A stretch of DNA of 64,000 nucleotides, taken from assembly GCA_009926305.1 (NCBI GenBank), contig RFPC01000002.1:1932-65931 (forward strand), read 5' to 3'. Under the pieces are notes generated by a model, which worked only from the letters and a program-made list of their open reading frames with translations, had not been told where the DNA came from and did not search any database. Position numbers and translations under genes: made by a program. Of the stretch, positions 9,133 to 29,719 are shown in pieces; position 1 is the stretch's first letter, and each line of letters starts with the position of its first letter. This stretch comes from a bacterium. Its GTDB lineage: Bacteria > Bdellovibrionota_C > UBA2361 > RFPC01.

Positions 9133-9314
9133 AGTGGTCTACAGTCTAAAGGAAGAAGATGAATAAACACAACGCACAGATTGCCTTCGCGAGAACAAAA
9201 TACGGCGACTAGCCAAGGTCGAACACCGCCCAGCTAGACGCCGTTATTGCTGTCTCACTACACCGAGAAAAATCCCAGCTAGCTACCAAACAAGTCAAAT
9301 CTCAAAGAGCAGAA

Positions 9315-9758
9315 CTATTTTTCCACCCGGAAATGCACTCTGCGGTTTTGAGACCATGCAGACTCGTTATGACCCGGAGCAAGTGGCTGGTCTTCCCCAT
9401 AACTCACCATGCTCATACGATCGCTCTCAATCCCTAAGCCTCGAAGATAGTCGTAAGCAGACTGAGCACGACGTTGACCCAACGCGAGGTTGTATTCCCG
9501 TGTCCCACGCTCATCACAGTGACCTTCAAGGGTAACGTCTACGCCAGAGTGGCTCTTCAGCCATTTCGCGCTATTCTTTAAGCTCTCCTTAGCCTCACTC
9601 GTAAGATCAGACTTATCGAAGGCAAAATGAACATCTTTCAACACCCTACCTGCTTCGGCATAAGGAACGTTTCCTATTGAACGCGGCCTAGTGGTACAGG
9701 TACATGCGGAAATAAAAAATACACTCGCAGCAAGTACTATTAATCTGACTGATTTCAT
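9315..9758 (-). CDS. pal: peptidoglycan-associated lipoprotein Pal (OmpA-like domain)
   Basis: Lipoprotein signal MKSVRLIVLAASVFFISAC. OmpA-family C-terminal domain (HCDERGTREYNLALGQRRAQSAYDYL...). The long ORF extends to 9797; the lipoprotein-type start is the Met at about 9758. Confidence 0.85.
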   Translation of the reverse strand: MKSVRLIVLAASVFFISACTCTTRPRSIGNVPYAEAGRVLKDVHFAFDKSDLTSEAKESLKNSAKWLKSHSGVDVTLEGHCDERGTREYNLALGQRRAQSAYDYLRGLGIESDRMSMVSYGEDQPLAPGHNESAWSQNRRVHFRVEK

Positions 9759-9800
9759 TCTGTGACTCTCCAAAATACTTTTCCGGCTGTTTCTCAAGAA

Positions 9801-9854
9801 CTTACCAAGATGCCTGCACTTACCAAGATGCCTGCACTTACCAAGATGCCTGGT
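9801..9854. repeat. 18-bp tandem direct repeat, about 2.9 copies (cttaccaagatgcctgca)
   Basis: Directly visible: cttaccaagatgcctgca x2 followed by cttaccaagatgcctggt. Lies about 45-95 nt upstream of the pal start. Confidence 0.9.
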
Positions 9855-10086
9855 TTCGCATGGAACCTTGCAACTGAGAAGTCCTGAACCTTTCTTAAGA
9901 AATCCCCTATGTTTACAACATACTAACAGCCGAATTTCAAGGTGTTAAATCACGAAACGGGTGTCTATATGTCGATGGGCATACCAATTCCTCACGAGAG
10001 AGTGTTTTTAAGAAGTATTGAAAGCCAATCTCAGGACGGAACACGTGGTTCTAGGCTTCCAGCAACGAGAGGAGTGCGTAAGCCCT

Positions 10087-11010
10087 CTAATCACTGTCCC
10101 CCTCCCTGATCAGGAAAAATCCATCAGAACCGGTGGGCTGGTAGCGTGGAAGGAAAATCATTCCTCGAAACGGTGAAGAAATAGGCCCAGAATTATCATC
10201 GGCTAAGTGCTCCCCTTCGGAGATGCTTTGGAAGTTACTAAAGCCGGGGCGCATCTTAAACCCGTCGTTCTCTTCTAGTCTATGGATATGACTAATTTCA
10301 AAACACTCAGGCAGATGAGCAGTCTGAGAGCGAAGTAATTCTCGGTATTTATCTTGGACCATTGTCAGACAATGACCTTCTAAGGAACCTGCTGCTAGTA
10401 ATCCATTCCAAATCGCAGCCTCGAGGTTATCAATGGAGCGCAGAGCTTCGTGCTGTCCGCCTTCCACGACTACGGTATGAATGCCCTGCTGAGCGGCATA
10501 TAAATAGAATAATCCGCTAATTCCCTGTTTCTCCAGACCTTGCATGCGAGGCAGCGGGAAATGTCTCGCAAAATCGAGGCACGAATGATTATCCGCTACA
10601 CCAAGAAATGGAGCCGATGGACCCGAGGTCGTGTGCAGATCTAGGCAAAAAACTGGCCCGGTCTTTTTTGCTTCACTCACCACTTCCAAAAAGAGCTTTT
10701 TCACCTGTTGTAGCTCGTCTAACTCGCGACACCCTTTCCTGATCACTGGGTCGGCAAGAGGCTCCTTCCCCCAAAGTCGATTCAGGTCATAGTCGAGGTA
10801 TCGTACGTTTGCTTTGCTTGCAGCTAGGTTTCCATGAATCGCAATTAAGCGCCCAGAAAACCCGACGTTTTCAACCTCTAATTGAGAAATGACTCGCTTC
10901 GCAGCTATAACACCCGCTGGTTCATTTCCATGTAGGGCAGCCATGACAATGATCGTAGGAGAAGTTGAGCCCCCAGAGGAGAAATCTCCTATTAATCTTT
11001 CTTGGTCCAT
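10087..11010 (-). CDS. succinylglutamate desuccinylase/aspartoacylase (AstE/AspA) family zinc hydrolase
   Basis: 'ALHGNEPAG' zinc-binding signature near the N-terminus and a conserved His further on. 307 aa. Sits between tolB and pal. Confidence 0.65.
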   Translation of the reverse strand: MDQERLIGDFSSGGSTSPTIIVMAALHGNEPAGVIAAKRVISQLEVENVGFSGRLIAIHGNLAASKANVRYLDYDLNRLWGKEPLADPVIRKGCRELDELQQVKKLFLEVVSEAKKTGPVFCLDLHTTSGPSAPFLGVADNHSCLDFARHFPLPRMQGLEKQGISGLFYLYAAQQGIHTVVVEGGQHEALRSIDNLEAAIWNGLLAAGSLEGHCLTMVQDKYRELLRSQTAHLPECFEISHIHRLEENDGFKMRPGFSNFQSISEGEHLADDNSGPISSPFRGMIFLPRYQPTGSDGFFLIREGDSD

Positions 11011-11127
11011 GAGATATCCGTCTTACTTTTTCCTTGCAGTCGTGAACACTGCAAGTATAGGAAGCTTTCGCGTATGAACAAAGTTTAATTTGAAAATACT
11101 ACTTGCTGATTCTACGAGAGAAGATAC

Positions 11128-12570
11128 TTACGAAAAAGGCACAGGTCCCCACGCCGGATCCGTGTCATCAGTTCGAGAATCTGAAAGGAGTCGGAATCCG
11201 GTTCCATCGGCTCTCATAATCGCGATGTTGTACGATCCTGTTCGACCATAAGTAGTAGAGAAAGCAATCTCCTCCCCATTTGGAGACCATTCTGGGTCTT
11301 CATTGAAGTGCGAGCTTGTAAGCTGAAGAGGATCGGTGCCATCGGGCTGAGAAGTAAATATATTATAGCCACCATCAGAACGACAGACATAAGCAATCCG
11401 ATCTCCGGTCGGCGACCAGTCAGGTGAGGTGCAGTAGTTCGCATTTGTAAAACTCACCCTCTGTACATCACCGCCATCCTTATTCATCACATAAATCTGT
11501 GGTCCCCCAGAGCGGTTAGAACAAAATACTATTCGCTCTCCATCTGGAGACCACTTCGGAGACACATCGATTACTCCATACTGAGAGGTTAGCTTACGAA
11601 CAGGTGTGCCATCAGGGCGCATAAGAACAATATGAGACTGTTTACCTAAAGAAACGGCAGTAATCAGGCTTTTTCCATCAGGTGAGAAGCTCCCTCCAAT
11701 TTCGAGTTCGCGTCCAGATGTAATGGGACGAGACTGGTCACGATCGAAATCATAGAGAAACAACTCAGGGATTCTTTTTTGATAGCTTGTGTAGAGAATT
11801 TGTTGGCCATTTGGATGAAATGCTGGGGCGATGGTAAGTCCACGCTCATCGGTTAATTGCCGCACCTCGCCGCCATCAATATTCATCCGAAACAATTCTT
11901 TAAACCTACCAACACGCGAAGCAAAAACAATCTTACTCCCGAAGACCCCAGATTTTCCCGTGAAATACTGAACGATTTCATTCGAGAAGCGGTCGGCTAT
12001 CTCTGAGAGTTGTGCAAAACTTCCCTCGTATTCTTTCCCGAATGCAATTTTTTGGCGCTGGACATCAAACAGGTACATTTGCAGAGTCAGACGTCCTCCA
12101 ACTTCTTGCAATGTTCCTCTGACGAGACCCTCTGCGCCGATCACTGACCAATCCGAAAAAGCAAAGGCAGTTGGTGATTCGAGGCACTTCCCAGGGGATT
12201 CGATGAAGGCTTTCGGGTCAATAACATGAAAGAATCCTGAGGAACTCAGATTTTTCGATACTGCCCTTGGAAGATTCTCCGCTCCAGAGTGCGCACCTTG
12301 AGGGGCACAAAGAACTGGAATCGCAATGGGATATTTCTTTCCGGAGCCCTGAACAAAAATGTCAGTCTGGGCGAAAGCTTGCGGCAAAAAGCCAGAAGTA
12401 TACATTCCCAAAAAGCACAGGAAATAGATACTCAGTGTCGAGAGAATTCGTGTTGAGAGAAATAACGAGTCACTTGGGGTGAACCACGTTCGGTGTGTTA
12501 CGCAAACCCTTTGGAAGAGAGAAGCCTCTTTACAGGGAGTTCTTAGAACGGAAAGGGTATCTTGTATCAT
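11128..12570 (-). CDS. tolB: Tol-Pal system beta-propeller protein TolB
   Basis: Repeated WSPDG.R[IL] beta-propeller blades (SFSPDGKSL, PKWSPDGERIVF, PDWSPTGDRIAY, PEWSPNGEEIAF). N-terminal signal. Tol-Pal context. Confidence 0.85.
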   Translation of the reverse strand: MIQDTLSVLRTPCKEASLFQRVCVTHRTWFTPSDSLFLSTRILSTLSIYFLCFLGMYTSGFLPQAFAQTDIFVQGSGKKYPIAIPVLCAPQGAHSGAENLPRAVSKNLSSSGFFHVIDPKAFIESPGKCLESPTAFAFSDWSVIGAEGLVRGTLQEVGGRLTLQMYLFDVQRQKIAFGKEYEGSFAQLSEIADRFSNEIVQYFTGKSGVFGSKIVFASRVGRFKELFRMNIDGGEVRQLTDERGLTIAPAFHPNGQQILYTSYQKRIPELFLYDFDRDQSRPITSGRELEIGGSFSPDGKSLITAVSLGKQSHIVLMRPDGTPVRKLTSQYGVIDVSPKWSPDGERIVFCSNRSGGPQIYVMNKDGGDVQRVSFTNANYCTSPDWSPTGDRIAYVCRSDGGYNIFTSQPDGTDPLQLTSSHFNEDPEWSPNGEEIAFSTTYGRTGSYNIAIMRADGTGFRLLSDSRTDDTDPAWGPVPFS

Positions 12571-12689
12571 AGGAGTCCAGCTGTAGAGACCGTAATTTAT
12601 ACCCTCAAAGACTACGAAACAGTATCGATTTGGACAAGTGGAGGAGAAGATTTTATAGAGCGAAAGAGCCTTAGCATATCTGAGGAGAA

Positions 12690-13565
12690 TCAGTATATCT
12701 GAGGAGAAAACGTCATCCGCACCTCTTTAAAATATTTATAAACGGTAGCCGGTGGCGGCGGGACGGGATCCGCTTTTTGAACAGCGCGTACCACGGATTC
12801 ATCGTATTTTCGGTTCCCTGAGGGATTACATAACCGTACGGAGATAAGCCCTCCTTCGGGAGACAGCTCAAAGCATACGCTAGCCTTTAGCGCAGCAGTC
12901 GGATCGTGCCATGCCCAACCACTCTTTACATACTGCTCGAGTAGCTCTTGATACTGAAAAAACTCCGGCGGTCGGGACTCCCCTCCACCAAAGCCGTTTC
13001 CACCCTGACCAGATGAGCCGTATCCCTTCCCACCTGCATCCGTTGATTCACCAGTATATTTCTTTACTGCCCGTTCAAGCGCACTGTTAATCTCATCCAA
13101 TGTTGGAGCCTTTTCTTTCTGAGAGCTTTCTTTCTTTTTATTTACGACCTGCTTCTTCTTCGAAGAAGATTTAGCCACTACCTCTTTCTTGGGTGGCTTC
13201 GGCTTACTGGTACTCTTCTTTTTTTCGGGTTTTACCTTCACCGGAACTGGTGTTGCCTTTACCTTCACCGACTTTTTCGGAAGAGCTACCTCAGCCTTTT
13301 CTTTTGCATGTGTCACTTTCTCTTTTACAGCTGCTGTTTTTTTTGGTTGTTTGATGCTTGGGGTGGGAACACTCTTCCTTTTTGTTTGTTTTGGGGCCTG
13401 AGAAATCGCTCCTCGCTTCGCTCCACTCTCTATACTAACGGAGTAGACAATAGGAGCACCGAAGTTACTGATACCCCCGCCCAGACCGATGAAAAGGAGA
13501 AATATGAGGAGATGTCCTACGAGTGATGCGGCAAAGCCAAGCTGATAGTCACTACCCTTAAACAC
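12690..13565 (-). CDS. tolA: TolA (TM anchor, Lys/Pro-rich linker, TonB_C-like domain)
   Basis: N-terminal TM, a long K/P/E-rich low-complexity linker, and a C-terminal TonB/TolA-type domain. Located between tolR and tolB. Confidence 0.6.
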   Translation of the reverse strand: MFKGSDYQLGFAASLVGHLLIFLLFIGLGGGISNFGAPIVYSVSIESGAKRGAISQAPKQTKRKSVPTPSIKQPKKTAAVKEKVTHAKEKAEVALPKKSVKVKATPVPVKVKPEKKKSTSKPKPPKKEVVAKSSSKKKQVVNKKKESSQKEKAPTLDEINSALERAVKKYTGESTDAGGKGYGSSGQGGNGFGGGESRPPEFFQYQELLEQYVKSGWAWHDPTAALKASVCFELSPEGGLISVRLCNPSGNRKYDESVVRAVQKADPVPPPPATVYKYFKEVRMTFSPQIY

Positions 13566-13634
13566 AGCTAAAAAACTTACCCTTACAATGAAACTTACTA
13601 CTGTCTCTATTAATAAGAATGACCAAGTGACCTC

Positions 13635-14075
13635 TTATCTTCTTTTGCTCTCTGATTTTTGGGGAGGTGCTGGATCTGATATTAAACCAATTTGTGTAAT
13701 GCCTCCCCGATGCAGCCGTCCCATTACTTCCATGATAGTTCCATAGTCGATGGCAGTATCTCCCTGAATGTAGATCTTCTGTACGCCCCCTTTTGCTAAC
13801 ATGACAGCTTTAACCTTGTCTGCAAGTTGGGAGAGTGGGACTTCATTGCCAGAGCCGAGAAAAAGCTTTCCTGTAGAATCTACAGACAGCACTACCTGCT
13901 CAGAGTCACCTTGCAAAGGAGCGGTAGTCGCTTTAGGGAGGTTTACTTCAACACCCTGTTGGAGCATCGGAGCAGTAACCATAAAAATAATCAAGAGTAC
14001 TAACATGACGTCCACGAGTGGCGTTACGTTAATATTTGCTACAGGGCCTTCGCCCCCAGGTCCAGAAAGTGCCAT
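13635..14075 (-). CDS. tolR: TolR/ExbD biopolymer transport protein
   Basis: 'NVTPLVDVMLVLLIIFMVTAP' ExbD/TolR signature. 146 aa. Confidence 0.85.
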   Translation of the reverse strand: MALSGPGGEGPVANINVTPLVDVMLVLLIIFMVTAPMLQQGVEVNLPKATTAPLQGDSEQVVLSVDSTGKLFLGSGNEVPLSQLADKVKAVMLAKGGVQKIYIQGDTAIDYGTIMEVMGRLHRGGITQIGLISDPAPPQKSESKRR

Positions 14076-14104
14076 TTACTTCTTAATCCTTTCTTCAACG
14101 CGTA

Positions 14105-14797
14105 CTAAGCAAGGTTCTCGCCGACAACCACTAAGAATTCCTCCTGAAAGCGATCCATAGACTCTCGAGCTCTACGGATTGCTACCGTAAAGTAGTTGTA
14201 GGCGATAGCAGCAGGTATTGCCGCGCCAAGACCGATGGCGGTAGCAACGAGCGCCTCCGATATCCCAGGCGCTACGGCTTGGATGGTAGTAAGCTGGGAG
14301 TTCCCCAAACTGTGAAACGCATTCATGATACCCCAAACAGTACCAAATAATCCGATGAACGGGGCGGAACTGGCCGTAGTTGCCAGAAAGGTCACGCCTT
14401 GCTCTAACCGATGGCTTTGCTGAAGCCCAGCTCTTTCGACTGCCCTTTTGACCGGATCAAGGTCTTGTATCTCCACGAGGCGCCCTGTGGAATTCATTTT
14501 TTGGATAAGTTGGTTCAGTTCTCGAAAACCAGCGACAAAAAGCTGGGTAACGTATCCATCGAGTAGTCTTCTGGTTGAGCTGTTTGCGCGACCAATATCA
14601 CGACTCTCCCAGAACACCTCTTGAAATTCCTCCGATTGACGAGTAGTTTTTCGAAATTGAAGTACCTTGCCAATGGTAATTGCCCAACTTAACAAGGATT
14701 GAATAATCAAAATAAATAGTACGGATTGTACAATGGGGCCTGAGCCCGCGACCATCTCGAACACTCCACCTGAGAGAATTCCCCCTTCAGCTTCCAT
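14105..14797 (-). CDS. tolQ: TolQ/ExbB/MotA-family proton channel
   Basis: Three TM segments and a 'GLFGTVWGIMNAF' motif. 230 aa. Lies upstream of tolR. Confidence 0.85.
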   Translation of the reverse strand: MEAEGGILSGGVFEMVAGSGPIVQSVLFILIIQSLLSWAITIGKVLQFRKTTRQSEEFQEVFWESRDIGRANSSTRRLLDGYVTQLFVAGFRELNQLIQKMNSTGRLVEIQDLDPVKRAVERAGLQQSHRLEQGVTFLATTASSAPFIGLFGTVWGIMNAFHSLGNSQLTTIQAVAPGISEALVATAIGLGAAIPAAIAYNYFTVAIRRARESMDRFQEEFLVVVGENLA

Positions 14798-17036: not shown

Positions 17037-18023
17037 TTATATGGCACCTCGCCATAGTTCTTTCGGGTCACCGTGTACTCGCGCTCCGACCTTCTTGATA
17101 ATTTGCGACGCCATGAAATTTGCTCCTCGCGCTGCCATCAGCGGGGTCTGACCTTCCACTACTCCGTGGAGAAACGCACCCGCAAATGCATCACCGGCCC
17201 CAGTAAGGTCCACCGTCTCAACTGAAAATCCAGGAACATGACCGGATTCTCCCTCTGCCGAATGGATGAAGGCTCCCTTTTCTCCAAGCGTTACAGCAGC
17301 AGCTCTATACCGAGCTTTTACTTCCTTAAGCGCTTCTTCCCCGCTTTCCGTTCTTGTAAGCACTTTGGCTTCACTCTCGTTAGCGAAAATTAAGTCAGCA
17401 TGCAAAAGGGCATGTTCAACCTCTTGGCGAAACCCATCCACAATCCAACCGTCAGATAGAGTAACCGCAATTTTTGTATCATGTTGTTGAGCGAGCTCTA
17501 TCGCACGCCTAATGGCTGGATGTCCAGACTGAGGATTGCAGAACAGATATCCCTCAATAAAGATCCACTTTGTTTGTCGAATGATCTCCTCCTCGAGGTC
17601 ATCTGAAGAAAAATCAGCGGAAACCCCGAGATGTGTTCGCATTGTCCGCTCTGCATCGGGAGTAATAAATATAAGAGACGTTCCGGATTTGCCGCCCACG
17701 TGAAAAGGGCTGGTGAGTCTGACCTGATGACTTTCGAATTCAGACTGATAGTGCATGCCGTAGGCATCATCGGCAAGGCGACATGAAAAGGCCGTGCTAG
17801 AACCGAGTTGTGCAAGGAGAACTATAGAGTTTGCTACCGAGCCTCCACTCACCATCTTTGGATCACAGTGCGAAAATTTTTCTAGAAGCTCTGCTTGAGC
17901 TTCAGCCTCAAGCAGATGCATAGTTCCCTTTTCGAAACCAAGCTGAGAAAACTCTTCATCACTAACTTCTACAAGTACATCGACCACACCATTGCCGATC
18001 CCGTATACATCGATACTCTTCAT
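17037..18023 (-). CDS. PfkB-family carbohydrate/nucleoside kinase (adenosine kinase-like)
   Basis: C-terminal 'DLTGAGDAFAGAFL' PfkB signature and N-terminal GG motif. 328 aa. Confidence 0.75.
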   Translation of the reverse strand: MKSIDVYGIGNGVVDVLVEVSDEEFSQLGFEKGTMHLLEAEAQAELLEKFSHCDPKMVSGGSVANSIVLLAQLGSSTAFSCRLADDAYGMHYQSEFESHQVRLTSPFHVGGKSGTSLIFITPDAERTMRTHLGVSADFSSDDLEEEIIRQTKWIFIEGYLFCNPQSGHPAIRRAIELAQQHDTKIAVTLSDGWIVDGFRQEVEHALLHADLIFANESEAKVLTRTESGEEALKEVKARYRAAAVTLGEKGAFIHSAEGESGHVPGFSVETVDLTGAGDAFAGAFLHGVVEGQTPLMAARGANFMASQIIKKVGARVHGDPKELWRGAI

Positions 18024-18112: not shown

Positions 18113-18565
18113 CTACGGGCACCCGTCGCCATCAACTGCCAAGCGAACAATCACCCCATCACAGAACCGTTCCCACGTGAGATATTTCTTGCCCTGACAA
18201 TGATTGATTTGCATAAAACCCATTGAATCATTTGGGTTGGCGCAGGCCCCATCAAATCGAACTTGAAATTTTGTGAGTCGAGGTAGTCGAAATCCTGGCA
18301 AAAGACTTGAGGCAACTGGATTGGTCATCTCTCCAGCTGTCGTTTGAGCGATAAGACCGAAACTTGCCGGCAGATTATCCGGATCCACAATTCCCGCTTC
18401 AAAGGAGGTTTGAGCATCTTGCAGAGCAGTCTCAATTACAGCAAAGGTTGCCGAATTTTTGTAAATGGCATAGCTGCTCAAAGCAAGGCTAGCAAGAACA
18501 CCAATAATCGCGATGATGGTGAGAAGCTCTATGAGGGTGAATCCTGAATCCATTCTTCCTTTCAT
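18113..18565 (-). CDS. type IV pilin / pseudopilin (prepilin-type N-terminal methylation domain)
   Basis: Leader MKGRMDSG followed by the cleavage motif G|FTLIELLTIIAIIGVLASLA. C-terminal Cys pair consistent with a D-region disulfide. The long ORF starts 15 codons upstream. Confidence 0.85.
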   Translation of the reverse strand: MKGRMDSGFTLIELLTIIAIIGVLASLALSSYAIYKNSATFAVIETALQDAQTSFEAGIVDPDNLPASFGLIAQTTAGEMTNPVASSLLPGFRLPRLTKFQVRFDGACANPNDSMGFMQINHCQGKKYLTWERFCDGVIVRLAVDGDGCP

Positions 18566-18794
18566 TTGCCTAACTCCTATCGGTAAAACGCACATAAAGC
18601 CCCAATTCAATCGTTACAGAGCTTCGAGATTCCCCGTAATCGGTATGACAGAAAATGTCGCTGCCACGACAAAAGTTGTCTATTCTGGCTGTCCACTCTT
18701 CAGTAAGACACCGAAACGTTTCACAAAAACAACACTCTCTTCACTCTGGGAATACCTGCTGCATAGACTGTTCCAAAATTAGCAATATCATCGG

Positions 18795-20075
18795 CTAATC
18801 AGAGCTATAAATAACGGGCATGGGCTCGCTCACTCGCTCTAGTGAATCGATATATTCCTCGATGACCTCACGGAGTCGCTCCGGTGCGATATCCAATAGA
18901 GTGAGTAATCTCTCCACAACTCCTTGTACCAGCGTATCAGGACAGCTCGCTCCAGAGGTAACTAAAACATCAACCGCGGCCCCGTCTTTTGGGTACCATT
19001 CCGTTGTGATGTGTTCCCTCCCCTCCTCGAGATCAAGGTGCGAAATTTCATTAATACTGATCACATCGGCAGGCCCACTTACAAAATATGTCGGAAACTG
19101 TTCTGCACACAGCTCAACCAAGTGAGATGTATTCGATGAGTTATATCCTCCAACTATAATTGCGATATCACCCCCCGAACGGATCAATTCAAGAGTGGAC
19201 TGTTGATTCTCAGTTGTCGCGTAACACAATGTATCACGAGTATCTGCAAAGTGTACGTCAATATCATCGTCACCATACTTCTCCACCATTCCACTACGTA
19301 AGATAGAACTAATCTCAGCTGTTTCAGTAGCAAGCATGGTCGTCTGATTAATTACACCAATTTTCTCTAAATCAGTGGAAGCAGAAAAAGAAGGCGACAT
19401 TCTTCCAGAAAACCGTTCTTTAAAGGCATCATATGATTCTCGACCGAGTATAAAATTTTTGAGCCACTCGGCCTCATGGACATCTGCTATAATGATACTC
19501 GGTGCCACTCTCGAAGCATGGGAAAATGTTGCCTGAGTCTCCTCATGTCGGGCTTTCCCATGTATGACAATCGAATATCCACGCTCTCCCAGTTGTGTTC
19601 CTCTTTTCCAAACCCTTTCAACAAAGGGACAGGTTGTATTATACCGACGGATATCGACCCCTTTGGCTTCCAGTAGCTCGCACATCTCCAGCGTTGTCCC
19701 AAATGCGGGAATGATAACTATATCTTTCTTTTCGACTTGAGAGAGAGAAATCAACTCTTTCCCATACGTAGAAAATAGAAATTCCACACCGCGTGCACGC
19801 AAGTCAGCATTTACGTGTGGATTATGAATCATCTCTGATAGGAGAAACACTCGCTGTGACGGATTCTCCTCAACTGCGCGATAGGCAATCTCGATAGCAT
19901 TTTCAACTCCGTAGCAAAATCCAAAATGCCTGGCAAATTTAATTCTCAGCTTTCCAAAATCAAGAACGGCAGGTGACTTATCTCGTTTTTTTGTATCGAT
20001 TTCAGAGCGCGCTCTTTTCATATAAGAAATAATGTGCGAGCGATACTGATCTGGAATGTTGAATTTTCTTGGCAT
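18795..20075 (-). CDS. ispH: 4-hydroxy-3-methylbut-2-enyl diphosphate reductase, long form with N- and C-terminal extensions
   Basis: 'FGFCYGVENAIEIA' LytB signature and conserved Cys positions. 426 aa, against about 316 aa for the compact IspH. Confidence 0.9.
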   Translation of the reverse strand: MPRKFNIPDQYRSHIISYMKRARSEIDTKKRDKSPAVLDFGKLRIKFARHFGFCYGVENAIEIAYRAVEENPSQRVFLLSEMIHNPHVNADLRARGVEFLFSTYGKELISLSQVEKKDIVIIPAFGTTLEMCELLEAKGVDIRRYNTTCPFVERVWKRGTQLGERGYSIVIHGKARHEETQATFSHASRVAPSIIIADVHEAEWLKNFILGRESYDAFKERFSGRMSPSFSASTDLEKIGVINQTTMLATETAEISSILRSGMVEKYGDDDIDVHFADTRDTLCYATTENQQSTLELIRSGGDIAIIVGGYNSSNTSHLVELCAEQFPTYFVSGPADVISINEISHLDLEEGREHITTEWYPKDGAAVDVLVTSGASCPDTLVQGVVERLLTLLDIAPERLREVIEEYIDSLERVSEPMPVIYSSD

Positions 20076-20086
20076 ACGCTTGTATC

Positions 20087-22024
20087 TTACGTCCCTTCTT
20101 TCTCCTTGTCTAACTCCCGAGCAAGCAAAATATCTTTGGGAGATTCACTGAGGATCTGTACCCCAAGCAGCCGTTTGTCTCCCTTGGAATTCGGATAAAA
20201 TGGTTTATCGATATATCCTTTGACATTGAGGCCACGGTAAGGATTTTCTGCAGGACAAGGAATTTTAAGGGATTGATTGGCGCCCGCTGGAAGCAGTTGC
20301 TCCAAATGACCACCCTCAGTAGAGAGCGATACCCGTTGAGCTGCGGAAGTGATGTTACGGATCTGAATGGATGCTTGACGTTGAGAGGTGCCCTCCTCAT
20401 CATTACAGAGTATCCAGGTGCTGAAGGCTCGTTGAGTCCACCTATAGGTATGGCCTGACACCGGATCTTTCTCCCACTGATAGAGTCCCATTTCGCCCTG
20501 TAAGGTAGAAACATAGAGCGCCGGACTGAACGCAAGAACAACAAAAATAGCCAATAGGTACGAGGAGCGGTGAACTGAGATCAGGCGAATAATGAGAGAT
20601 AAAAATAGAGCGCACAGCAACATCACTTCTTGAAAGAGGTAGTGGGGTCCGATGAACAGAATGACAGCAAAGGAAGCAAAAGCTGCTAAGCCTACTCGGA
20701 ACGCGCGCTTTTTCGTATGAAGACCTTCTTGTAATCCAATTTTTGAATAGAGCAGCATAAGGGTCATCACGAGAAGCCCCAGGAGGCCATACTCTGCTAA
20801 AAAACCGATATAGGCATTATTTGGATTATCAGTCCAGAAGCCGATATCAATACCGAGATAATCGGACAAACTAGTTACATACCCTGAAAATTGTAGGGGA
20901 CCGACTCCTGAGACGGGAAAACGTGAAAATGCCTCTACTCCTAACGAGGCAAACTGCAGTCGATTTTCAACAAGAGTTAAATCTCCCCTCAATAAGGCTG
21001 AGACGGTCTCTCGTACCCGAACGAGTGATTGAAAATTATCCAAGCCCAAGACAAGGAGTCCACAGAGACTTATGCCTATCAGAATCACTAATACACTTCT
21101 TCCATTATGTTGCTTCCTAATAGAGTAAGCGGTTAAGGCCCCATACAGGGCAAAAAAGACAAGAATATAGAGGAGAAATGTGCGGCTGCCCGACAGGAGT
21201 CCTCCGAGAATTGCTAAGATCATTCCACACAGAACAAGACGAGGGCGCTCGTTATAAACATCCTGTTCTTTCCCGATGTGCAATAAGAGAAATATAAAAA
21301 AAACGGCAGAGAAAATACCAAACGCGTTCGGATCGGTGAAAGTTCCGACACTCCGATTGAGAGAATCCCATAGCGGAGTTTGCCGGGGAAATTGGAGGTG
21401 AATTTGCTCTATTAGCGGAAGCTTTCGAGTCAATGCTTGTATGATTGAAAAAAGAAGTCCAAGCGTCCCACCCCACAATATCCCTCTTACAGAAGCAATT
21501 TGTGCAGACTTCTCCTCTGAGCATAACTTAAAGAATGCAAATGCAGAGAACAGGAGCGCAGCAAAACCAAGTTGAGATAATACCTGGATACCGAGAAACG
21601 GAACAGATTGCGAGGCATTTATCGACCATTGAAGATTGGGAAATTCATGCACAAGAGTAAATCCGCCATATAGAATAAGATAGAGAAGTATGGGGAATCC
21701 AAAATGAGGGAAGGTCTCTTTGTTTTTACAAATGACTCCCCCGAATATAAGGAGACTCAAAATTGAAACAATATCTACTCCTAATACCGGCGCAATTGGA
21801 AATATACATCCAAAGAAGAAAAGTGACCTTTCAAGAAGAGAACGTTTAGAAAGCCATTTCTTTTCGCCTATTGCGGCAAAAAACACACTGATGAAAAGAC
21901 AAAAAAGAGGCAAAACAGGAAAGGATTCAAGTAGTGTAACGTCATGATACAGACGAATGGCGCTCGTTGAGAAAAGGAGGAGAAGAAAGCTCAACAGAGC
22001 CAGGGTCATAAGAAAAGGGCGCAT
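20087..22024 (-). CDS. polytopic membrane protein with O-antigen ligase/polymerase-like (Wzy_C) domain plus a C-terminal periplasmic domain
   Basis: More than 10 TM segments. 'NAYIGFLAEYGLLGL' and 'SGSRTFLL' resemble Wzy_C motifs. About 130-aa soluble C-terminal domain. 645 aa. Confidence 0.5.
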   Translation of the reverse strand: MRPFLMTLALLSFLLLLFSTSAIRLYHDVTLLESFPVLPLFCLFISVFFAAIGEKKWLSKRSLLERSLFFFGCIFPIAPVLGVDIVSILSLLIFGGVICKNKETFPHFGFPILLYLILYGGFTLVHEFPNLQWSINASQSVPFLGIQVLSQLGFAALLFSAFAFFKLCSEEKSAQIASVRGILWGGTLGLLFSIIQALTRKLPLIEQIHLQFPRQTPLWDSLNRSVGTFTDPNAFGIFSAVFFIFLLLHIGKEQDVYNERPRLVLCGMILAILGGLLSGSRTFLLYILVFFALYGALTAYSIRKQHNGRSVLVILIGISLCGLLVLGLDNFQSLVRVRETVSALLRGDLTLVENRLQFASLGVEAFSRFPVSGVGPLQFSGYVTSLSDYLGIDIGFWTDNPNNAYIGFLAEYGLLGLLVMTLMLLYSKIGLQEGLHTKKRAFRVGLAAFASFAVILFIGPHYLFQEVMLLCALFLSLIIRLISVHRSSYLLAIFVVLAFSPALYVSTLQGEMGLYQWEKDPVSGHTYRWTQRAFSTWILCNDEEGTSQRQASIQIRNITSAAQRVSLSTEGGHLEQLLPAGANQSLKIPCPAENPYRGLNVKGYIDKPFYPNSKGDKRLLGVQILSESPKDILLARELDKEKEGT

Positions 22025-22028
22025 TGTA

Positions 22029-22679
22029 TTATTCTGCCTCCTGCCCTACCTCTTCACAGATCTCGTCCCCATGATTCCAATGATAGTTGAAACTGACACT
22101 TACCCGTTCTTCACTTGCGGTATGGGGCGGCACTTCATGTCGTAGCCAACTCTCGAATAACACTAAATCACCAGCAGCAGGTTGATGGGAAACGAACGAA
22201 CACAGCTCATCACTGAGCTCCTCCCTTCGAGGAGGACAAGCCATCTGAAGCCCCAGTCTGGGGTCTTCAAAACGTATAGCGCTTGCTCCAAGAGGCATTG
22301 AAACGTAGTAAGTACCACTAATAAATGATAGAGGATGAATATGACCTGTATGGACGCATCCTGGGCCCATAATGTTAACCCACATATCAGATATCTCTAA
22401 TTCTATCCCATTCATCTCATAGCCGAGCGAATCTGCAAACTCATAGGCACACGGACGAATATGCTGCTCTAACTCACGAAAGGTACTGCTCATGTAAAAG
22501 AGGTCATTGCGTGAAGCATAGGATGTAAAGCCACCGGGATAGTTCGAGGTGCTCCATTCCTGACCATCCTCATCGAAGTCTTTAATCTGAAAACTCTCTT
22601 TCTGGAGCTCATGAAAGAGCTGGTTATCGGACCTCAGCAAAGATTTCTCGTATATGAGAGTGTGAAATAGGGAGCGCAT
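22029..22679 (-). CDS. TIGR02466-type putative 2OG-Fe(II) oxygenase-fold protein
   Basis: 'MWVNIMGPGCVHTGHIHP...SGTYYV' and 'LVLFESWLRHEV...RVSVSFN' match the conserved blocks of the TIGR02466 family. 216 aa. Confidence 0.6.
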   Translation of the reverse strand: MRSLFHTLIYEKSLLRSDNQLFHELQKESFQIKDFDEDGQEWSTSNYPGGFTSYASRNDLFYMSSTFRELEQHIRPCAYEFADSLGYEMNGIELEISDMWVNIMGPGCVHTGHIHPLSFISGTYYVSMPLGASAIRFEDPRLGLQMACPPRREELSDELCSFVSHQPAAGDLVLFESWLRHEVPPHTASEERVSVSFNYHWNHGDEICEEVGQEAE

Positions 22680-22681
22680 TA

Positions 22682-23608
22682 CTATTTACCTTTTCTGTTC
22701 TTTCGGTCTACCTTACTTGCTTTGACCTCATGCTGAAAAGCCGACAAATCCCCTTGTCCATCTGGCACAAACAGCATCACCTCGTTCTTCGAGACAATCT
22801 CACTCTGAGAAAGGGCATTATCCTCTATGACGGTCCGTATTTGATTCCAGTTTTTCTCGAAATTTTCACCAATCAGGATACCAAATGGACCAAGCTCACC
22901 CCGATAGAGCCCTGATTTTAAGGCACCAACAATAAGAGGCTCTTTATCAGCGGAAGGGTAGACAGGTTGATCAAGAATATGTGAACCATGAAAAACTCTG
23001 GATGTTCCCCCCTCTGGGGTAGTGGTTACTGAGTGCACTACTACCCTCTGGCCCTGAAAAACGCCTAGCGTCAGTAGCATCCATTCCTTGGGAGGAACGA
23101 CTATATCTGAAAAAAGAAATTTACCTCCTTGTCCTCGAATATCTCCCCAGAATAGTGCAGGTCGGTCCACCTCACCTCTTCGGATTATTCCAAAAGAGTA
23201 CCCGCTCACAAACTCCAGATGCGCTTTTAGTTTGGCAACGAATATAGAGTTGTCGCCTTCTTTCAGTAGCCCCCGGGGTCGAATCCAAACAAATAACCCG
23301 AAATCTTCACCACGAGCTGGTTCTAGGTCAGGTGAATGATTCAGCGAGATAAAATCTCCACCTGTGCGAACCCGGAATGTTTTCGGAAATCGCCTTTCTG
23401 ATTCCTCGTCAGCTTCATCATGAGTGGCTTGCTCAATAACTGGGGAACTATGGATGGGTCCAGAAAAGAAACTACTCGCTTGAAAGACGATGACGGCGGC
23501 TAAGAGAAAAGCACCGAAGAATAGAGTAATTCGAAGAAGAAATATTTTAACAGGAGACACCCTATCCCTCTCAAAGTGTATGAATAAAAATCGAGCGTTC
23601 GATATCAA
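22682..23608 (-). CDS. membrane-anchored protein with a LamG/concanavalin-like jelly-roll domain (putative)
   Basis: N-terminal TM. 'DFGLFVWIRPRGL...NSIFVAK...GYSFGI' resembles a LamG pattern. 308 aa. Confidence 0.35.
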   Translation of the reverse strand: MISNARFLFIHFERDRVSPVKIFLLRITLFFGAFLLAAVIVFQASSFFSGPIHSSPVIEQATHDEADEESERRFPKTFRVRTGGDFISLNHSPDLEPARGEDFGLFVWIRPRGLLKEGDNSIFVAKLKAHLEFVSGYSFGIIRRGEVDRPALFWGDIRGQGGKFLFSDIVVPPKEWMLLTLGVFQGQRVVVHSVTTTPEGGTSRVFHGSHILDQPVYPSADKEPLIVGALKSGLYRGELGPFGILIGENFEKNWNQIRTVIEDNALSQSEIVSKNEVMLFVPDGQGDLSAFQHEVKASKVDRKNRKGK

Positions 23609-23702: not shown

Positions 23703-24329
23703 TTATTCCTCTTCGCTGGCTTCTTCCTCGGCTATGAAACCTGCATCGAGTTCCTCGCCGCTCTCTGAATCAGCCAGGAGCTGCTCTTCTTCTACGACGC
23801 TACTCGATTCTTCTCCTTCAATCTGATCCTCATCAGAGGCCTCTTTCTTGCGGCTCTTCTTGCCTTCTGGCTTGGCGACTTTTTCAGCGATAGCCTTTAC
23901 GTCCACAGTAACGGGTACGACAACCTCAGAGTGAAGTTGAATCTCAGCTTCAAATTCGCCAGCACTCTTAATGATATCATTCAGTCGTACTTGCTTTTTA
24001 TCGATGGCATAGCCGCGATCCTGCAGTGCCTTCAAAATATCCCTTGTGCCAACTGAACCAAAGGCCTTGCCTCCTGCTCCAACTTTCAACTCAAAGGAAA
24101 GCCTCTCTGCAGACACCTTTTTTCCAAGCTCTTCGGCTTCTCCACGCAAGCGTGAGCGCTTTGCAGTGATACCAGCCATAATATGGTTAAATTCTTTTGC
24201 TTTACGAGAGGCAAAATCTACGGCTATTCCACGAGGGAACAGAAAATTCCGGGCATAACCATTCCGAACTTGAACAGTATCTCCGACATAACCTAGTGCC
24301 GGAAAATCTTCTATAAGAAGCACTTCCAT
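23703..24329 (-). CDS. rplI: 50S ribosomal protein L9 with about 60-aa acidic C-terminal tail
   Basis: 'MEVLLIEDFPALGYVGDTVQVRNGYARNFLFPRG' L9 N-domain. The C-terminus is E/D/S-rich. Confidence 0.9.
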   Translation of the reverse strand: MEVLLIEDFPALGYVGDTVQVRNGYARNFLFPRGIAVDFASRKAKEFNHIMAGITAKRSRLRGEAEELGKKVSAERLSFELKVGAGGKAFGSVGTRDILKALQDRGYAIDKKQVRLNDIIKSAGEFEAEIQLHSEVVVPVTVDVKAIAEKVAKPEGKKSRKKEASDEDQIEGEESSSVVEEEQLLADSESGEELDAGFIAEEEASEEE

Positions 24330-24386: not shown

Positions 24387-24734
24387 CTAAGCTGCACTTT
24401 TCTTTAAATGCTCTCCACTGAGTCGCCCCTTGAACTTTCGAGTACTATCGCTGATGCGATGCGTTTGAAACTTGGTAACCGACTCATTAATACGAAGTAG
24501 ATCATTTATGCGTTCACCAAGCTCAGCGCTATCGGCCTCATAGTAGAAGACCGTATAGGCACCATAGTTTTTCTTGTTCATCTGGTATGCAAGTTCACGC
24601 TTGCCCCAGCCATCAAGCACAATATCTTTCGCTCCGTTCTCAGAGAGAAATTTATTAAAGTTCTCTGATTCTGCGGCGACTTGTTCATCAGTCAGCACTG
24701 AATCAAAAATTATTATCGTTTCGTATTTTCTCAT
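24387..24734 (-). CDS. rpsF: 30S ribosomal protein S6
   Basis: '[12 protein letters not shown]...[14 protein letters not shown]' S6 signature. 115 aa. Confidence 0.9.
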
Positions 24735-24790: not shown

Positions 24791-26836
24791 TTATAAAAGA
24801 GGAGCAATGAGGAGAGCTACTATCGACATTAACTTAATCAGAATATTTAGTGCTGGCCCCGAGGTGTCCTTACATGGATCACCAACGGTGTCACCAACAA
24901 CCGCCGCTTTGTGAGCCTCTGAGCCCTTAGATTCACCATCTACCAGCCCCTGCTCAATGTACTTTTTAGCGTTATCCCATGCTCCACCAGCATTTGCCAT
25001 AAGAAGAGCTAACACAACCCCAACGACGGTTGCACCAAGTAGCATCCCAGCCAAACTTGCTGCACCCAGAAGGAAACCGACCACACAAGGTGCCGCTACT
25101 GCAATAATCCCAGGGAGTTTCATTTCCGCTAATGCCGCATCAGTAGAGATTGCAACACAGCGAGATACCTCTGGCTTCGCATCAGGTTTACCGTCGAGAA
25201 GTCCAGGAATCTCTCGGAACTGCCTCCGTATCTCTGTCACCATTTTTCCTGCCGCCTTCCCGACAGAAATCATTGTCAGAGCAGAAATGACACATGGCAA
25301 GGCCGCGCCAATCAAGACTCCGATAACCAGCTCTGGATTCGTGATTGCGAAGTCCACCACTACTTCATTTTCTGTTAACGTCTGAGCGAAGGCTGCAAAC
25401 AGTGCCAGCGCGGTTAGTGCTGCTGAACCGATAGCAAATCCTTTCCCGATTGCTGCTGTTGTATTTCCAATACTGTCTAGCTTATCCGTAATAGCCCGAG
25501 TCTCAGGGCCAAGCTCTGACATTTCCGAAATACCACCCGCGTTATCGGCAATCGGACCATAGGCGTCTACGCTCATCGTAATACCCACCGTAGACAACAT
25601 AGCCACAGCAGCAAGTGCTACTCCATAAAGACCACCAGCCCAGTTTGCTATTGCAATCGTGACTGCGATTATCACGAGCGGCCCAGCACAACTCATGAAC
25701 CCTACGGACAGTCCTGCGATAATATTGGTTGCCGGACCTGTCTTTGAGGCTTCTGCAATACCAAAGACTGGCTTCATCGCCGTGTAATACTCTGCGGTCA
25801 GGCCAATCAGGACACCACTCAACGTTCCTACTACCATGGAAATCCAGAGATTGGCATTTACATCGGTGAACATGGTGTAGAGAAACATGATCGCAAGGAA
25901 AATTCCCGCCGAGACAAATGTTGAGTTTCTGAGCGCTGCGGCTGGATCCTTATCTTTCATGGCGTTCATCGCGCCGATTCCGATAAGCGATGAGAAAAGT
26001 CCGATAACTCCCATGAGGAACGGAGTAATCATAAGCCACTGCCTTGAATTCCATTCGTCTCCACCTGCAACGTAGGAAGTAATTCCAGATAGTTCTGAAA
26101 CGGCAATAGTTGCACCGATCGCCATACAGGCGATCATTGAACCAACATAAGATTCAAAAATATCAGCACCCATTCCGGCAACGTCGCCGACATTATCCCC
26201 AACGTTATCTGCGATAACTCCAGGGTTTCTTGGGTCATCTTCTGGTATTCCTGCTTCCACCTTTCCAACGAGGTCAGCTCCAACGTCCGCTGCTTTCGTG
26301 TAGATTCCACCTCCGACGCGGGCGAAAAGTGCAACGGAAGATGCGCCCATTCCGAATCCTACTAGGTACTGCGCTCCTCCTTCCGATCCGAATGCGATAT
26401 AGAGCACGCCAAGACCCAAAATCCCCAGACTTGCTACGCAAAGTCCCATAACCGCTCCACCGTTAAACGCTGTCATGAGCGCTAGCCCCTGATTCTTTTC
26501 AGAAGCTGCTTGAGTCGTACGCACGTTAGCGGCGGTTGCTGCAGACATCCCAGCAAAGCCCGCGAATAAAGAACAGAAGCTACCAACGGCATAGGCTACC
26601 GCTACTTGGTATCCGAGAGCACTTGCAAGAAGGAGAAAAACTATCGCTATAAAGATTATGAGGTAGAACGCCTCTTTTCTTAAAAATGCAAGTGCTCCAT
26701 CCCTAATATCTTGAGCGATGGCTCTCATTTTCTCTGAGCCTACTGGCATGGCCTGAATCTGTGCGTACGTTCGATAGGCAATAATAAGCCCAAATAAACC
26801 GGTAATTGGCATCAGATACGAAAGTGCTTGCATCAT
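24791..26836 (-). CDS. hppA: membrane-bound proton-translocating pyrophosphatase
   Basis: '[27 protein letters not shown]' H+-PPase signature. 681 aa, polytopic. Confidence 0.95.
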
Positions 26837-26959: not shown

Positions 26960-27628
26960 CTATCTTCTTTGGGCTTCACTCCTTCTGTTAACGGTCATTT
27001 GCGTTTGTTCAAATCCATTCTCAAGCAAACTGCAAACCGCATCCACAGCAGTGTCCAGAGCTCCACTCAGGGTGTCTTGTTCCCCCTTGCCGAACGCTCC
27101 GAGCACCCAACTATGCACTAAGTCACCCTTTATGTCAGCCTTTTGGCCAATATTTGGTCTGCCAATGCCAAAACGCACTCTTACATAGCTGGCTCCCCCG
27201 AGAAGCTTTGTTATTGACTTGAGCCCATTATGCCCGCCATCTCCCCCTCCTTTACGGATACGGCAGGTTCCGAGTGGGAAATCCAAGTCGTCATGAATCA
27301 CGCAGATCTGCTCTCGAGGTATCTGAAAATACTTAGCCAGAGCCTGTACGGACTCTCCGCTAAGGTTCATAAATGTCTGAGGTTTCAACAGAAAAAGCTT
27401 TCTAGCCGGTTCTCCATAGGGTGAACGACTGAGCGTGAGATAGTTTCCCTGAAATTTTGATTTCCATTGAAGAGCATGGACAATCGAGGACTCTCCAGAA
27501 CGGGATAACTCCTCAAAAAGCCGGTCTAGAACGAGAAAGCCCGCATTGTGTCGCGTTCTCTCGTATTCTGAGCCAGGATTGCCAAGACCGACAATCAACA
27601 CATCGGAGGTTGTGAAGGGATCTTCCAT
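26960..27628 (-). CDS. pth: peptidyl-tRNA hydrolase
   Basis: 'LIVGLGNPGSEYERTRHNAGF' Pth signature. Confidence 0.9.
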   Translation of the reverse strand: MEDPFTTSDVLIVGLGNPGSEYERTRHNAGFLVLDRLFEELSRSGESSIVHALQWKSKFQGNYLTLSRSPYGEPARKLFLLKPQTFMNLSGESVQALAKYFQIPREQICVIHDDLDFPLGTCRIRKGGGDGGHNGLKSITKLLGGASYVRVRFGIGRPNIGQKADIKGDLVHSWVLGAFGKGEQDTLSGALDTAVDAVCSLLENGFEQTQMTVNRRSEAQRR

Positions 27629-28765: not shown

Positions 28766-29719
28766 CTAGCGGAAGATACTGCTAATTGAATCTTCACCAT
28801 GAATTCTTCGAATTGCCTCAGCGAAGAGGGGTACAACAGAAAGGACAGTCAGCTTCTCAAACCGTCTTGATGTTGGAAGATTAATCGAATCCGCAACGAC
28901 TACCTCTTTCAGTTGTGATGCCTGAAGGCGCTCCCCGGCTTTCCCAGATAAAACGGGATGTACACAACATGCAATTATCTCTTTTGCCCCCTCAGCGAGG
29001 AGCGCGTCGGCTGCTTTACTGAGTGTTCCCCCAGTATCTACCATGTCATCGACAATGATAGCTATTTTGTCCTTCACATCACCAACCACTTTCATTTCTG
29101 CCACGTGGTTTGGGCCTGAACGTCTTTTATCGATAATAGCAATGCCAACGTTTCCTAAACGGGTTGCATATTGGCGAGCACGTTCCACGCCTCCCATATC
29201 GGGCGAGACAACAACAAGAGGATGCTCTCGTGAGCCGTACTGCTCTCTTAAGTACGGGACCATAACCGGAAGTGCATTAAGATTATCAACTGGCTTATTG
29301 AAAAATCCCATAATCTGACCAGCATGAAGTTCCATTGTGAGCACTCGATTTGCACCAGCAGTTTCCAAGAGATCTGCTACTAACCTCGCGGTAATCGGAA
29401 CCCGCGGTTTTAATTTTCTATCCTGACGTGCATACCCGAAATAGGGAATCACTGCTGTGATACGCCAGGCGCTTGCTCGCTTGAGAGCATCGATGGTGAT
29501 AAGTAGCTCCATCAAATGATCATTTCCCGGCGCACTGGTACTCTGAACAATGAAGACATCTCTACCTCGAACGTTATCTCCTATCTCAACAGACAGTTCG
29601 CCGTCACTGAACTTAACAACTTCAAGCCTGCCGATCTCACGTTCTAGTGCATCCGAAACTGCAGTTGCAAAGCTTGGGTTTGACCGACCAGAGAAAACGA
29701 CGAGTTGTCTTTCTTTCAT
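28766..29719 (-). CDS. prs: ribose-phosphate pyrophosphokinase
   Basis: Full-length Prs; the N-terminus 'LVVFSGRSNPSFA' matches the Prs family and the PRPP-binding region is present. 317 aa. Confidence 0.95.
   Translation of the reverse strand: MKERQLVVFSGRSNPSFATAVSDALEREIGRLEVVKFSDGELSVEIGDNVRGRDVFIVQSTSAPGNDHLMELLITIDALKRASAWRITAVIPYFGYARQDRKLKPRVPITARLVADLLETAGANRVLTMELHAGQIMGFFNKPVDNLNALPVMVPYLREQYGSREHPLVVVSPDMGGVERARQYATRLGNVGIAIIDKRRSGPNHVAEMKVVGDVKDKIAIIVDDMVDTGGTLSKAADALLAEGAKEIIACCVHPVLSGKAGERLQASQLKEVVVADSINLPTSRRFEKLTVLSVVPLFAEAIRRIHGEDSISSIFR

Follow-up and report, generated by a model that had tools for sequence, protein, structure and literature searches.

A 64,000-nucleotide stretch of contig RFPC01000002.1 (hereafter the window; positions 1,932 to 65,931 of the forward strand, GenBank assembly GCA_009926305.1), from a bacterium of the Bdellovibrionota_C lineage RFPC01, carries three tightly packed genes on its minus strand that encode, in the order of transcription, an anchored lectin-like protein (gene A), a TIGR02466 protein (gene B), and a polytopic membrane protein with a Wzy_C domain (gene C). 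The unit conserved across genomes is the pair of A and C, not the trio, and it is inherited in a Bdellovibrionota-type lineage in the order rpsF-rplI-A-C. C retains the two diphosphate-binding arginines of the O-antigen ligase WaaL, but has asparagine at the position where WaaL and PglL have an invariant histidine. We tentatively favor, with a confidence that falls a little short of even, a reading in which A and C form an uncharacterized envelope-glycoconjugate pair at the periplasmic face, in which a lectin-like protein would partner a GT-C enzyme of non-canonical type and B would be a lineage-specific accessory or a passenger.

The three open reading frames (ORFs) and the gaps that separate them (2 nt between A and B, 4 nt between B and C) were confirmed from the sequence as a first-pass annotation of the window had reported them, and since homologues exist for all three, none is a chance ORF. 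The longest ORF of A (22682-23608, minus strand) begins at a TTG; the likely start is the GTG at 23560, which has a GAGG six nucleotides upstream and gives a gene of 22682-23560 whose 292-aa product matches a public-data prediction (P0006, 99% identical). B spans 22029-22679 (minus strand, 216 aa) and C spans 20087-22024 (minus strand, 645 aa). The A and C proteins of the window are identical or near-identical to NCBI entries NBW39467.1 (EBR25_00540) and NBW39465.1 (EBR25_00530), respectively, from an organism given as ‘bacterium’, and an Oligoflexia homologue of A is present as MDC0358900.1; all three entries are annotated ‘hypothetical protein’.

Conservation of the A-C pair across genomes

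Twenty-five related loci were compared, 22 of which were returned when species-representative genomes were scanned with a broader alignment of A, and these were mostly labelled Bdellovibrionota, Oligoflexia, Bdellovibrionales, or ‘delta proteobacterium’ metagenome-assembled genomes, with a few other labels. Among the ORFs of these loci, A and C were sought with hidden Markov models, and B and the flanking genes with phmmer. A scan of species-representative contigs with a narrow A alignment returned nothing, the sub-clade of the window being apparently unrepresented or masked among them.

Gene A directly follows rplI in all of the loci with a visible upstream side (23/23), and, of the 23 loci that can be read on the downstream side, 18 have C immediately after A. 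Based on longest-ORF starts, the A-C gaps range from -4 to 59 nt, with overlaps of 1 or 4 nt in five lineages. In the window, the invariant upstream neighbors of A are rpsF (24387-24734, minus strand) and rplI (23703-24329, minus strand). The pair is still kept outside the sub-clade of the window, where A is only 18–26% identical to the window protein. Downstream of C the gene content varies and includes ispH-pilin-PfkB, or an M48 peptidase, ComEC, MreB, a GAF protein, RNase G, or others, and the retention of the pair while the downstream genes change supports a linkage between A and C.

The first-pass annotation had described the three genes as a single module and had named their co-occurrence in other genomes as a test of it. 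The trio occurs only in a narrow monophyletic sub-clade comprising the window with L029/L031, L003-5, and L001, and B is absent from 22 of the 25 compared loci. All 22 of these other loci have A, with C directly after it in 15 of them, and none has B, leaving rplI-A-C as the conserved order. Within the sub-clade, the full order S6-L9-A-B-C-ispH-pilin is present in two divergent metagenomic loci (L001 and L003), in which A is 39% and 54% identical to window A, respectively. As the B-bearing loci are monophyletic in the tree of A sequences, a single insertion event is indicated, and B appears to be a late insertion between A and C in the sub-clade of the window that does not belong to the core of the unit. 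B was rejected as a conserved partner of A and C due to this confinement to the narrow sub-clade, and the outcome urges caution with gene-neighborhood inference, in that conservation is lacking for precisely the gene that looks most tightly coupled, B, with its gaps of 2 and 4 nt.

An asparagine at the histidine position of C

Enzymes with the Wzy_C/WaaL fold are routinely annotated as ‘O-antigen ligase’ based on the Pfam domain alone, and the histidine of WaaL and PglL is the proposed activator of the acceptor. C matches Pfam Wzy_C (PF04932; 46.2 bits, gathering cut-off 31.7) at residues 267-419 (20768-21226, minus strand), a domain that holds R281, R355, and the motif W-x-D-N-x-N-N-x-Y. The protein is polytopic, as expected of the group, with 13 predicted helices in a WaaL/SEDS-type (GT-C_B) fold. 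Following the 13th predicted helix is an additional C-terminal domain (residues ~512-645; 20090-20491, minus strand), modelled as a small beta-sandwich with the motif W-x-P...D-x-R-x-L-G-[VI], which its position after that helix would place in the periplasm. Thus the Wzy_C assignment and the extra domain of the first-pass annotation were both recovered, as was the TIGR02466 assignment of B (220 bits; see below). A word-indexed protein search returned at least five relatives of C with the single sequence and at least 18 with a profile.

In E. coli WaaL, R215, R288, and H338 are reported to be important for function, and the corresponding R224, R298, and H349 are conserved in PglL (PMC3643930). 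The structure of WaaL has two arginines binding the phosphates of undecaprenyl diphosphate (Und-PP), and the column of the WaaL histidine is occupied by an essential aspartate in SEDS proteins and by aspartate or glutamate in most inverting Wzy families (PMC10920833). Members of the C clade were aligned by MAFFT with 13 distant canonical Wzy_C proteins and compared profile-to-profile (hhalign) with 15 canonical sequences, including E. coli WaaL. The invariant or near-invariant columns of the canonical alignment are exactly E. coli R215, R288, and H338, and in the hhalign comparison (probability 99.6%, E 1e-23) N402-N403 of C stands opposite the canonical H-N motif. R281 and R355 of C correspond to R215 and R288, so that both diphosphate-binding arginines are retained, while Asn402 (codon at 20819-20821, minus strand) occupies the column of E. 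coli H338, C. metallidurans H313, and PglL H349. This column is asparagine in 16/16 full-length members of the C clade and histidine in 15/15 canonical sequences. Of the Wzy_C catalytic residues that the first-pass annotation had proposed to check, the two arginines are therefore present and the histidine is replaced.

Asn402 sits inside the W-x-D-N-x-N-N-x-Y motif, and other invariant motifs of the C clade include G-S-R-[TS]-F, [ST]-D-P-N-A, G-P-H-x-x-F-x-E, and the C-terminal motif given above. Three of these (W.DN.NN.Y, GPH..F.E, and [ST]DPNA) are clade-specific and lie on the predicted periplasmic side of the protein; the order of helices in the model of C would put the G-P-H/E466 residues in a short hairpin that joins helices 11 and 12 on the periplasmic side. 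With the catalytic histidine missing, C was rejected as a classic WaaL or PglL. As the position is Asn402, C has neither the residue that defines WaaL and PglL nor the Asp/Glu of inverting Wzy and SEDS proteins (CAZy clan GT-C1), and, judged on these residues, a label of O-antigen ligase, O-oligosaccharyltransferase, or Wzy polymerase would be wrong for it.

It is unlikely that C is the ordinary lipopolysaccharide (LPS) O-antigen ligase, or core-polymer ligase, of this lineage, tolerating Asn402 and assisted by A as an accessory. Such a ligase would have to work without a residue that is among the three important for function in E. coli WaaL and is conserved in the PglLs (PMC3643930), and that is found in the matching column of all 15 canonical sequences. 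Further, HMMER gave no match of C to any solved WaaL, and genes for the LPS core or O-antigen were found neither within ~10 kb of the trio in the window nor among the sampled conserved downstream neighbors. When A and C were searched against PDB sequences, whether as single sequences or as profiles, only noise was returned.

A canonical, His-bearing Wzy_C protein was observed in one locus in which C does not adjoin A (L018 8248-10296, minus strand; 683 aa, AHN motif), encoded convergently 2.3 kb downstream and with a C-terminal D-x-R-x-L domain similar to that of C. This protein may be a functional replacement of the Asn-type C.

The loss of the residue at the base position, combined with the retention of both phosphate-binding arginines (PMC10920833), would also be expected of a dead WaaL-fold protein that binds polyprenyl-diphosphate or glycan and that, together with A, has a non-transferase role at the periplasmic face, be it in handling or recycling the carrier lipid, in sensing, or as a scaffold. 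Some of the gene context fits this possibility, including ispH, an isoprenoid-pathway gene that adjoins C in 4 of the 23 loci readable downstream (and in L025 comes straight after A, with no C between the two), an ispE-like gene upstream, and the lack of glycan-synthesis neighbors. However, D399, N400, N403, H461, E466, and the DPN motif are strictly conserved, a pattern typical of an active site, and the isoprenoid link may be a coincidence, since strings of housekeeping genes such as ispE-prs-L25-pth are common. A purely binding role for C is, on balance, improbable.

A family of predicted anchored lectin-like proteins

In the A protein, an N-terminal anchor and an acidic linker of low complexity (Ser/Pro/acidic) precede a predicted LamG/pentraxin-like jelly-roll domain, which is followed by a helix and a basic C-terminal tail. 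An exhaustive profile search places it in an un-named family of 259 clusters at 50% identity, with members all ~300 aa in length. An N-terminal hydrophobic segment is present in 139 of the 144 full-length representatives of the family, and the distribution of lysine and arginine (K/R) around it is biased towards an N-in/C-out orientation (109, vs 11 with the opposite bias). Based on this charge bias, A is predicted to be a type-II (N-in/C-out) anchored protein with its lectin-like domain in the periplasm, in agreement with the membrane anchoring initially proposed for it.

Many members of the family end in a polybasic tail, with at least five K/R in the last 15 residues in 51/139 and a mean K/R content of the tail of 26%, compared to 12% overall, which is unusual for a predicted periplasmic domain. 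A GH16-type glucanase was considered for A and rejected, as the family lacks a conserved catalytic motif of acidic residues, D86 alone being near-invariant.

The TIGR02466 protein encoded by B

B matches TIGR02466 over its full length (220.1 bits, cut-off 62.5; residues 2-201 of 201) and PF13759 (2OG-FeII_Oxy_5; 109.9 bits, cut-off 27; E 9e-32). It also matches two structural-genomics entries in the PDB, 3BVC (E ~5e-51) and 2RG4 (E ~1e-50), both of which are uncharacterized proteins, and shares with them the motifs HxHP, RHEV, and RxS, with HxH...H conserved. These matches suggest a cytoplasmic protein of the 2-oxoglutarate (2OG)-oxygenase/cupin fold with putative oxygenase activity; a functional study of TIGR02466/PF13759 or of 3BVC/2RG4 was not found in the literature. 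A metagenome scan with B returned five loci, including two near-identical copies of the window locus, and homologues with 47% and 31% identity to B that occur in unrelated contexts with no A or C nearby. The homologue with 31% identity (L032 234-5588) lies between two GT4-type genes and is accompanied by GT2 and NAD-dependent epimerase/dehydratase genes, which makes a glycan-related role plausible for some members of TIGR02466. A second B-like ORF is present in L033.

Gene neighborhood and the nearby pilin gene

The trio is flanked by further genes on the minus strand, with prs (28766-29719), L25 (27809-28531), pth (26960-27628), and a membrane H+-pyrophosphatase (H+-PPase; 24791-26836) upstream of rpsF and rplI, and with ispH (18795-20075; long PRK13371 type), a prepilin-type (N_methyl) gene (18113-18610, likely start ATG 18565), and a PfkB kinase (17037-18023) downstream of C. 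The gap from C to ispH is 11 nt and a consensus scan found no terminator-like site in the rplI-A spacer; transcription therefore probably covers more than these three genes as one unit. A promoter/terminator scan from rpsF to ispH yielded fewer promoter-like sites than shuffled sequences and no informative terminator. The tight packing of the three-gene operon put forward in the first-pass annotation was borne out, though its limit to three genes was not, and with ispH 11 nt past C and rplI upstream such a boundary is arbitrary. The first-pass annotation had noted that no sugar-nucleotide or glycosyltransferase genes are adjacent, and in the window none lies within ~10 kb of the trio.

The prepilin-type gene, which lies 1.5 kb downstream and had been noted at the outset as an orphan pilin gene 2 kb away, raised the possibility of protein O-glycosylation, with C as a PglL/TfpO-like oligosaccharyltransferase (OTase) acting on the type IV pilin or on the Ser/Pro/acidic linker of A. 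C belongs to the Wzy_C family and lies outside LPS clusters, O-OTase genes often adjoin their targets (PMC3643930), and the low-complexity linker between the anchor and the domain of A could offer a second target. Against this, the equivalent of PglL H349 is asparagine in every member of the C clade, and a Pfam-A scan, assuming that PglL_A (PF15864) was in the copy scanned, gave no match of C to this family at E<=0.1. Further, the pilin gene is adjacent in just 4 of the 25 loci, where it travels with ispH-PfkB and not with A-C, and the pilin lacks the C-terminal serine of TfpO-type targets. The glycosylation of the pilin suggested in the first-pass annotation is consequently not upheld, and O-glycosylation by C in either form is very unlikely.

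Several features of the surrounding sequence were also observed. The usual operon has rpsR/priB (or ssb) between rpsF and rplI. In the window the two genes are directly adjacent, with a 57-nt gap and no rpsR/priB (or ssb) in between, and the intervening genes are likewise missing wherever both genes were called among the related loci (19/25). The H+-pyrophosphatase gene is located between pth and rpsF only in the sub-clade of the window and in L020 (‘Candidatus Dadabacteria’). The ispH product is 426 aa in length and its best model is PRK13371 (458.7 bits, cut-off 440), not the short enterobacterial models. In L001 the C-ispH junction, which is 5–11 nt in the window and L003, is a 1.1-kb spacer (12065-13210) with no ORF of at least 100 aa and no match in an Rfam search.

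Farther from the trio, a Tol-Pal-type cluster (8407-14797, minus strand) encoding ExbB/TolQ-like, ExbD-like, TonB_2/TolA-like, TolB, and TPR proteins is found past the PfkB, TIM, and GAPDH genes, at a distance of a few kb. The sole glycosyltransferase among the ORFs scanned over ~8–38 kb of the window is a GT87-family gene (polyprenyl-phosphate-mannose-type GT-C glycosyltransferase; 36535-37761, plus strand), 13 kb from the trio. A 535-aa ORF (34822-36429, plus strand) matches the RAP domain (E 1.8e-7), FAST_1, and REase_MTES_1575, a FASTK/RAP-like architecture that is mostly eukaryotic and organellar but is carried here by a bacterial contig.

A proposed role at the periplasmic face

On the gene identities, folds, residue substitution, topology bias, and distribution presented above, we infer an A-C interaction, a type of donor, and a role in the envelope glycoconjugate. 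In this scheme C would be an inner-membrane GT-C_B protein whose donor, as the two diphosphate-holding arginines are kept, is most likely linked to a polyprenyl-(di)phosphate and bound at the periplasmic face. Given asparagine where WaaL and PglL have histidine and where SEDS and most inverting Wzy proteins have Asp/Glu, C would not have the canonical activity of an O-antigen ligase, an O-oligosaccharyltransferase, or a polymerase; another conserved residue at the periplasmic face could be the base (candidates D399, H461, and E466), or the chemistry or the acceptor may differ. A would be the partner of C, binding or positioning the glycan acceptor or product, in an arrangement analogous in architecture to that of SEDS with the class-B penicillin-binding proteins (PBPs) or Wzy with Wzz. 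B may modify the precursor in this lineage specifically, or be no more than a passenger. Of the surface-glycan module suggested in the first-pass annotation, the glycoconjugate role at the periplasmic face is still the most reasonable reading, shorn of the pilin link and of the membership of B.

A number of points weigh against such a role. Window A has no Pfam match and does not reach the gathering cut-off of Laminin_G_3 (PF13385); its relatives have sub-threshold matches only (7/54, best E 1.8e-5; e.g., 18.9 bits vs 27.6), and the structure model of A is of low confidence (pLDDT 50), so that of the initial description as a TM-anchored, LamG-like protein the anchoring stands and the LamG-like part is a prediction below the Pfam threshold. 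C could, given the loss of the histidine, not be an enzyme at all. No glycosyltransferase, flippase, or sugar-nucleotide gene was found near any of the loci. The loci were sought with a 7-sequence alignment of A and one peptide pattern, and the pair was thus sampled only in taxa with a sequence that fits this pattern. Five of the 23 loci readable downstream have no C next to A (L016, L025, L014, L022, and L018), and for L016 the C gene of the same assembly (P0004) is on another contig, L002. Lastly, the upstream string prs-L25-pth-S6-L9-A, made up of functionally unrelated genes, is as conserved as A-C, such that the adjacency of A and C possibly reflects inherited synteny rather than shared function; with a housekeeping string that is equally syntenic, adjacency alone is weak evidence for the function of the pair.

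Carried to its end, this argument gives no functional module at all, only inherited synteny and genome compaction, with B hitch-hiking and the three proteins acting independently. The absence of B from most loci, the equal synteny of unrelated flanking genes, the five loci in which A lacks an adjacent C, and the uninformative promoter/terminator scan are all compatible with this explanation. It accounts less readily for A and C staying together while the downstream genes change, for the start/stop overlaps of 1–4 nt in five lineages (longest-ORF starts), and for the prediction that the domains of both proteins are at the same periplasmic face, and we assign it a small probability.

With respect to the substrate of the proposed glycoconjugate pair, Bdellovibrio lipid A is reported to carry mannose in place of phosphate, and we know of no assignment of the enzymes for this mannose decoration. 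An unusual decoration of lipid A or the core is a conceivable, if speculative, substrate of A-C. Neither a functional study of a Bdellovibrio lipid A or ligase nor any report on the A-C pair was found in the literature. At its most ambitious, the proposal would make the rplI-linked pair a previously unrecognized, lineage-wide Bdellovibrionota envelope machine, in which a WaaL-fold transferase with a His to Asn exchange, using a different base, donor, or acceptor, and a lectin subunit dedicated to it in the periplasm work together as a complex, a version that we hold to be unlikely.

The C clade represents a stable and widely inherited departure at a residue thought to activate the acceptor, and the loci add both a distinct Asn-type subfamily of WaaL-fold proteins and a new un-named lectin-fold partner family (~259 clusters at 50% identity). 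If a complex of A and C is real, it would point to an uncharacterized surface structure in predatory and Bdellovibrio-like bacteria.

Comparison with known systems

Among characterized proteins, WaaL (CAZy GT121; C. metallidurans PDB 7TPG/7TPJ and E. coli K-12) shares with C both of the diphosphate-binding arginines, while C differs in having asparagine for histidine, an extra 13th helix, the C-terminal beta-sandwich, and the clade-specific GPH..F.E and DN.NN motifs, and in being located outside LPS core clusters, paired with a LamG-like anchored protein. The O-oligosaccharyltransferases PglL, PilO(TfpO), and PglS have in common with C the Wzy_C domain, a site outside LPS loci, and a pilin-type gene in the neighborhood; C differs from PglL/TfpO in the asparagine at the H349 equivalent, in having no detected PglL_A motif, and in that its conserved partner is the LamG-like protein and not a pilin.

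B is a typical full-length member of TIGR02466/PF13759, a family without an assigned function, and what is particular to the sub-clade of the window is that it lies between A and C. Window A falls under the Pfam threshold for the Laminin_G_3/pentraxin/ConA-like lectin domains and forms its own family of ~300 aa, distinguished from the ConA-like lectins by the N-terminal anchor and the basic tail and by the lack of a GH16-type catalytic motif.

C has no membership by sequence in the SEDS/bitopic class-B PBP (RodA-PBP2, FtsW-FtsI) or Wzy/Wzz systems, and the likeness that we infer is one of architecture. SEDS proteins have an essential aspartate and most inverting bacterial polysaccharide polymerases (BP-Pols) an Asp/Glu where C has asparagine, and the partner of C would have a lectin fold, in contrast to the transpeptidase partner of SEDS and the coiled-coil co-polymerase partner of Wzy. 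Should A and C form a complex, the pair would constitute a new functional class in the GT-C_B group, alongside SEDS-bPBP and Wzy-Wzz.

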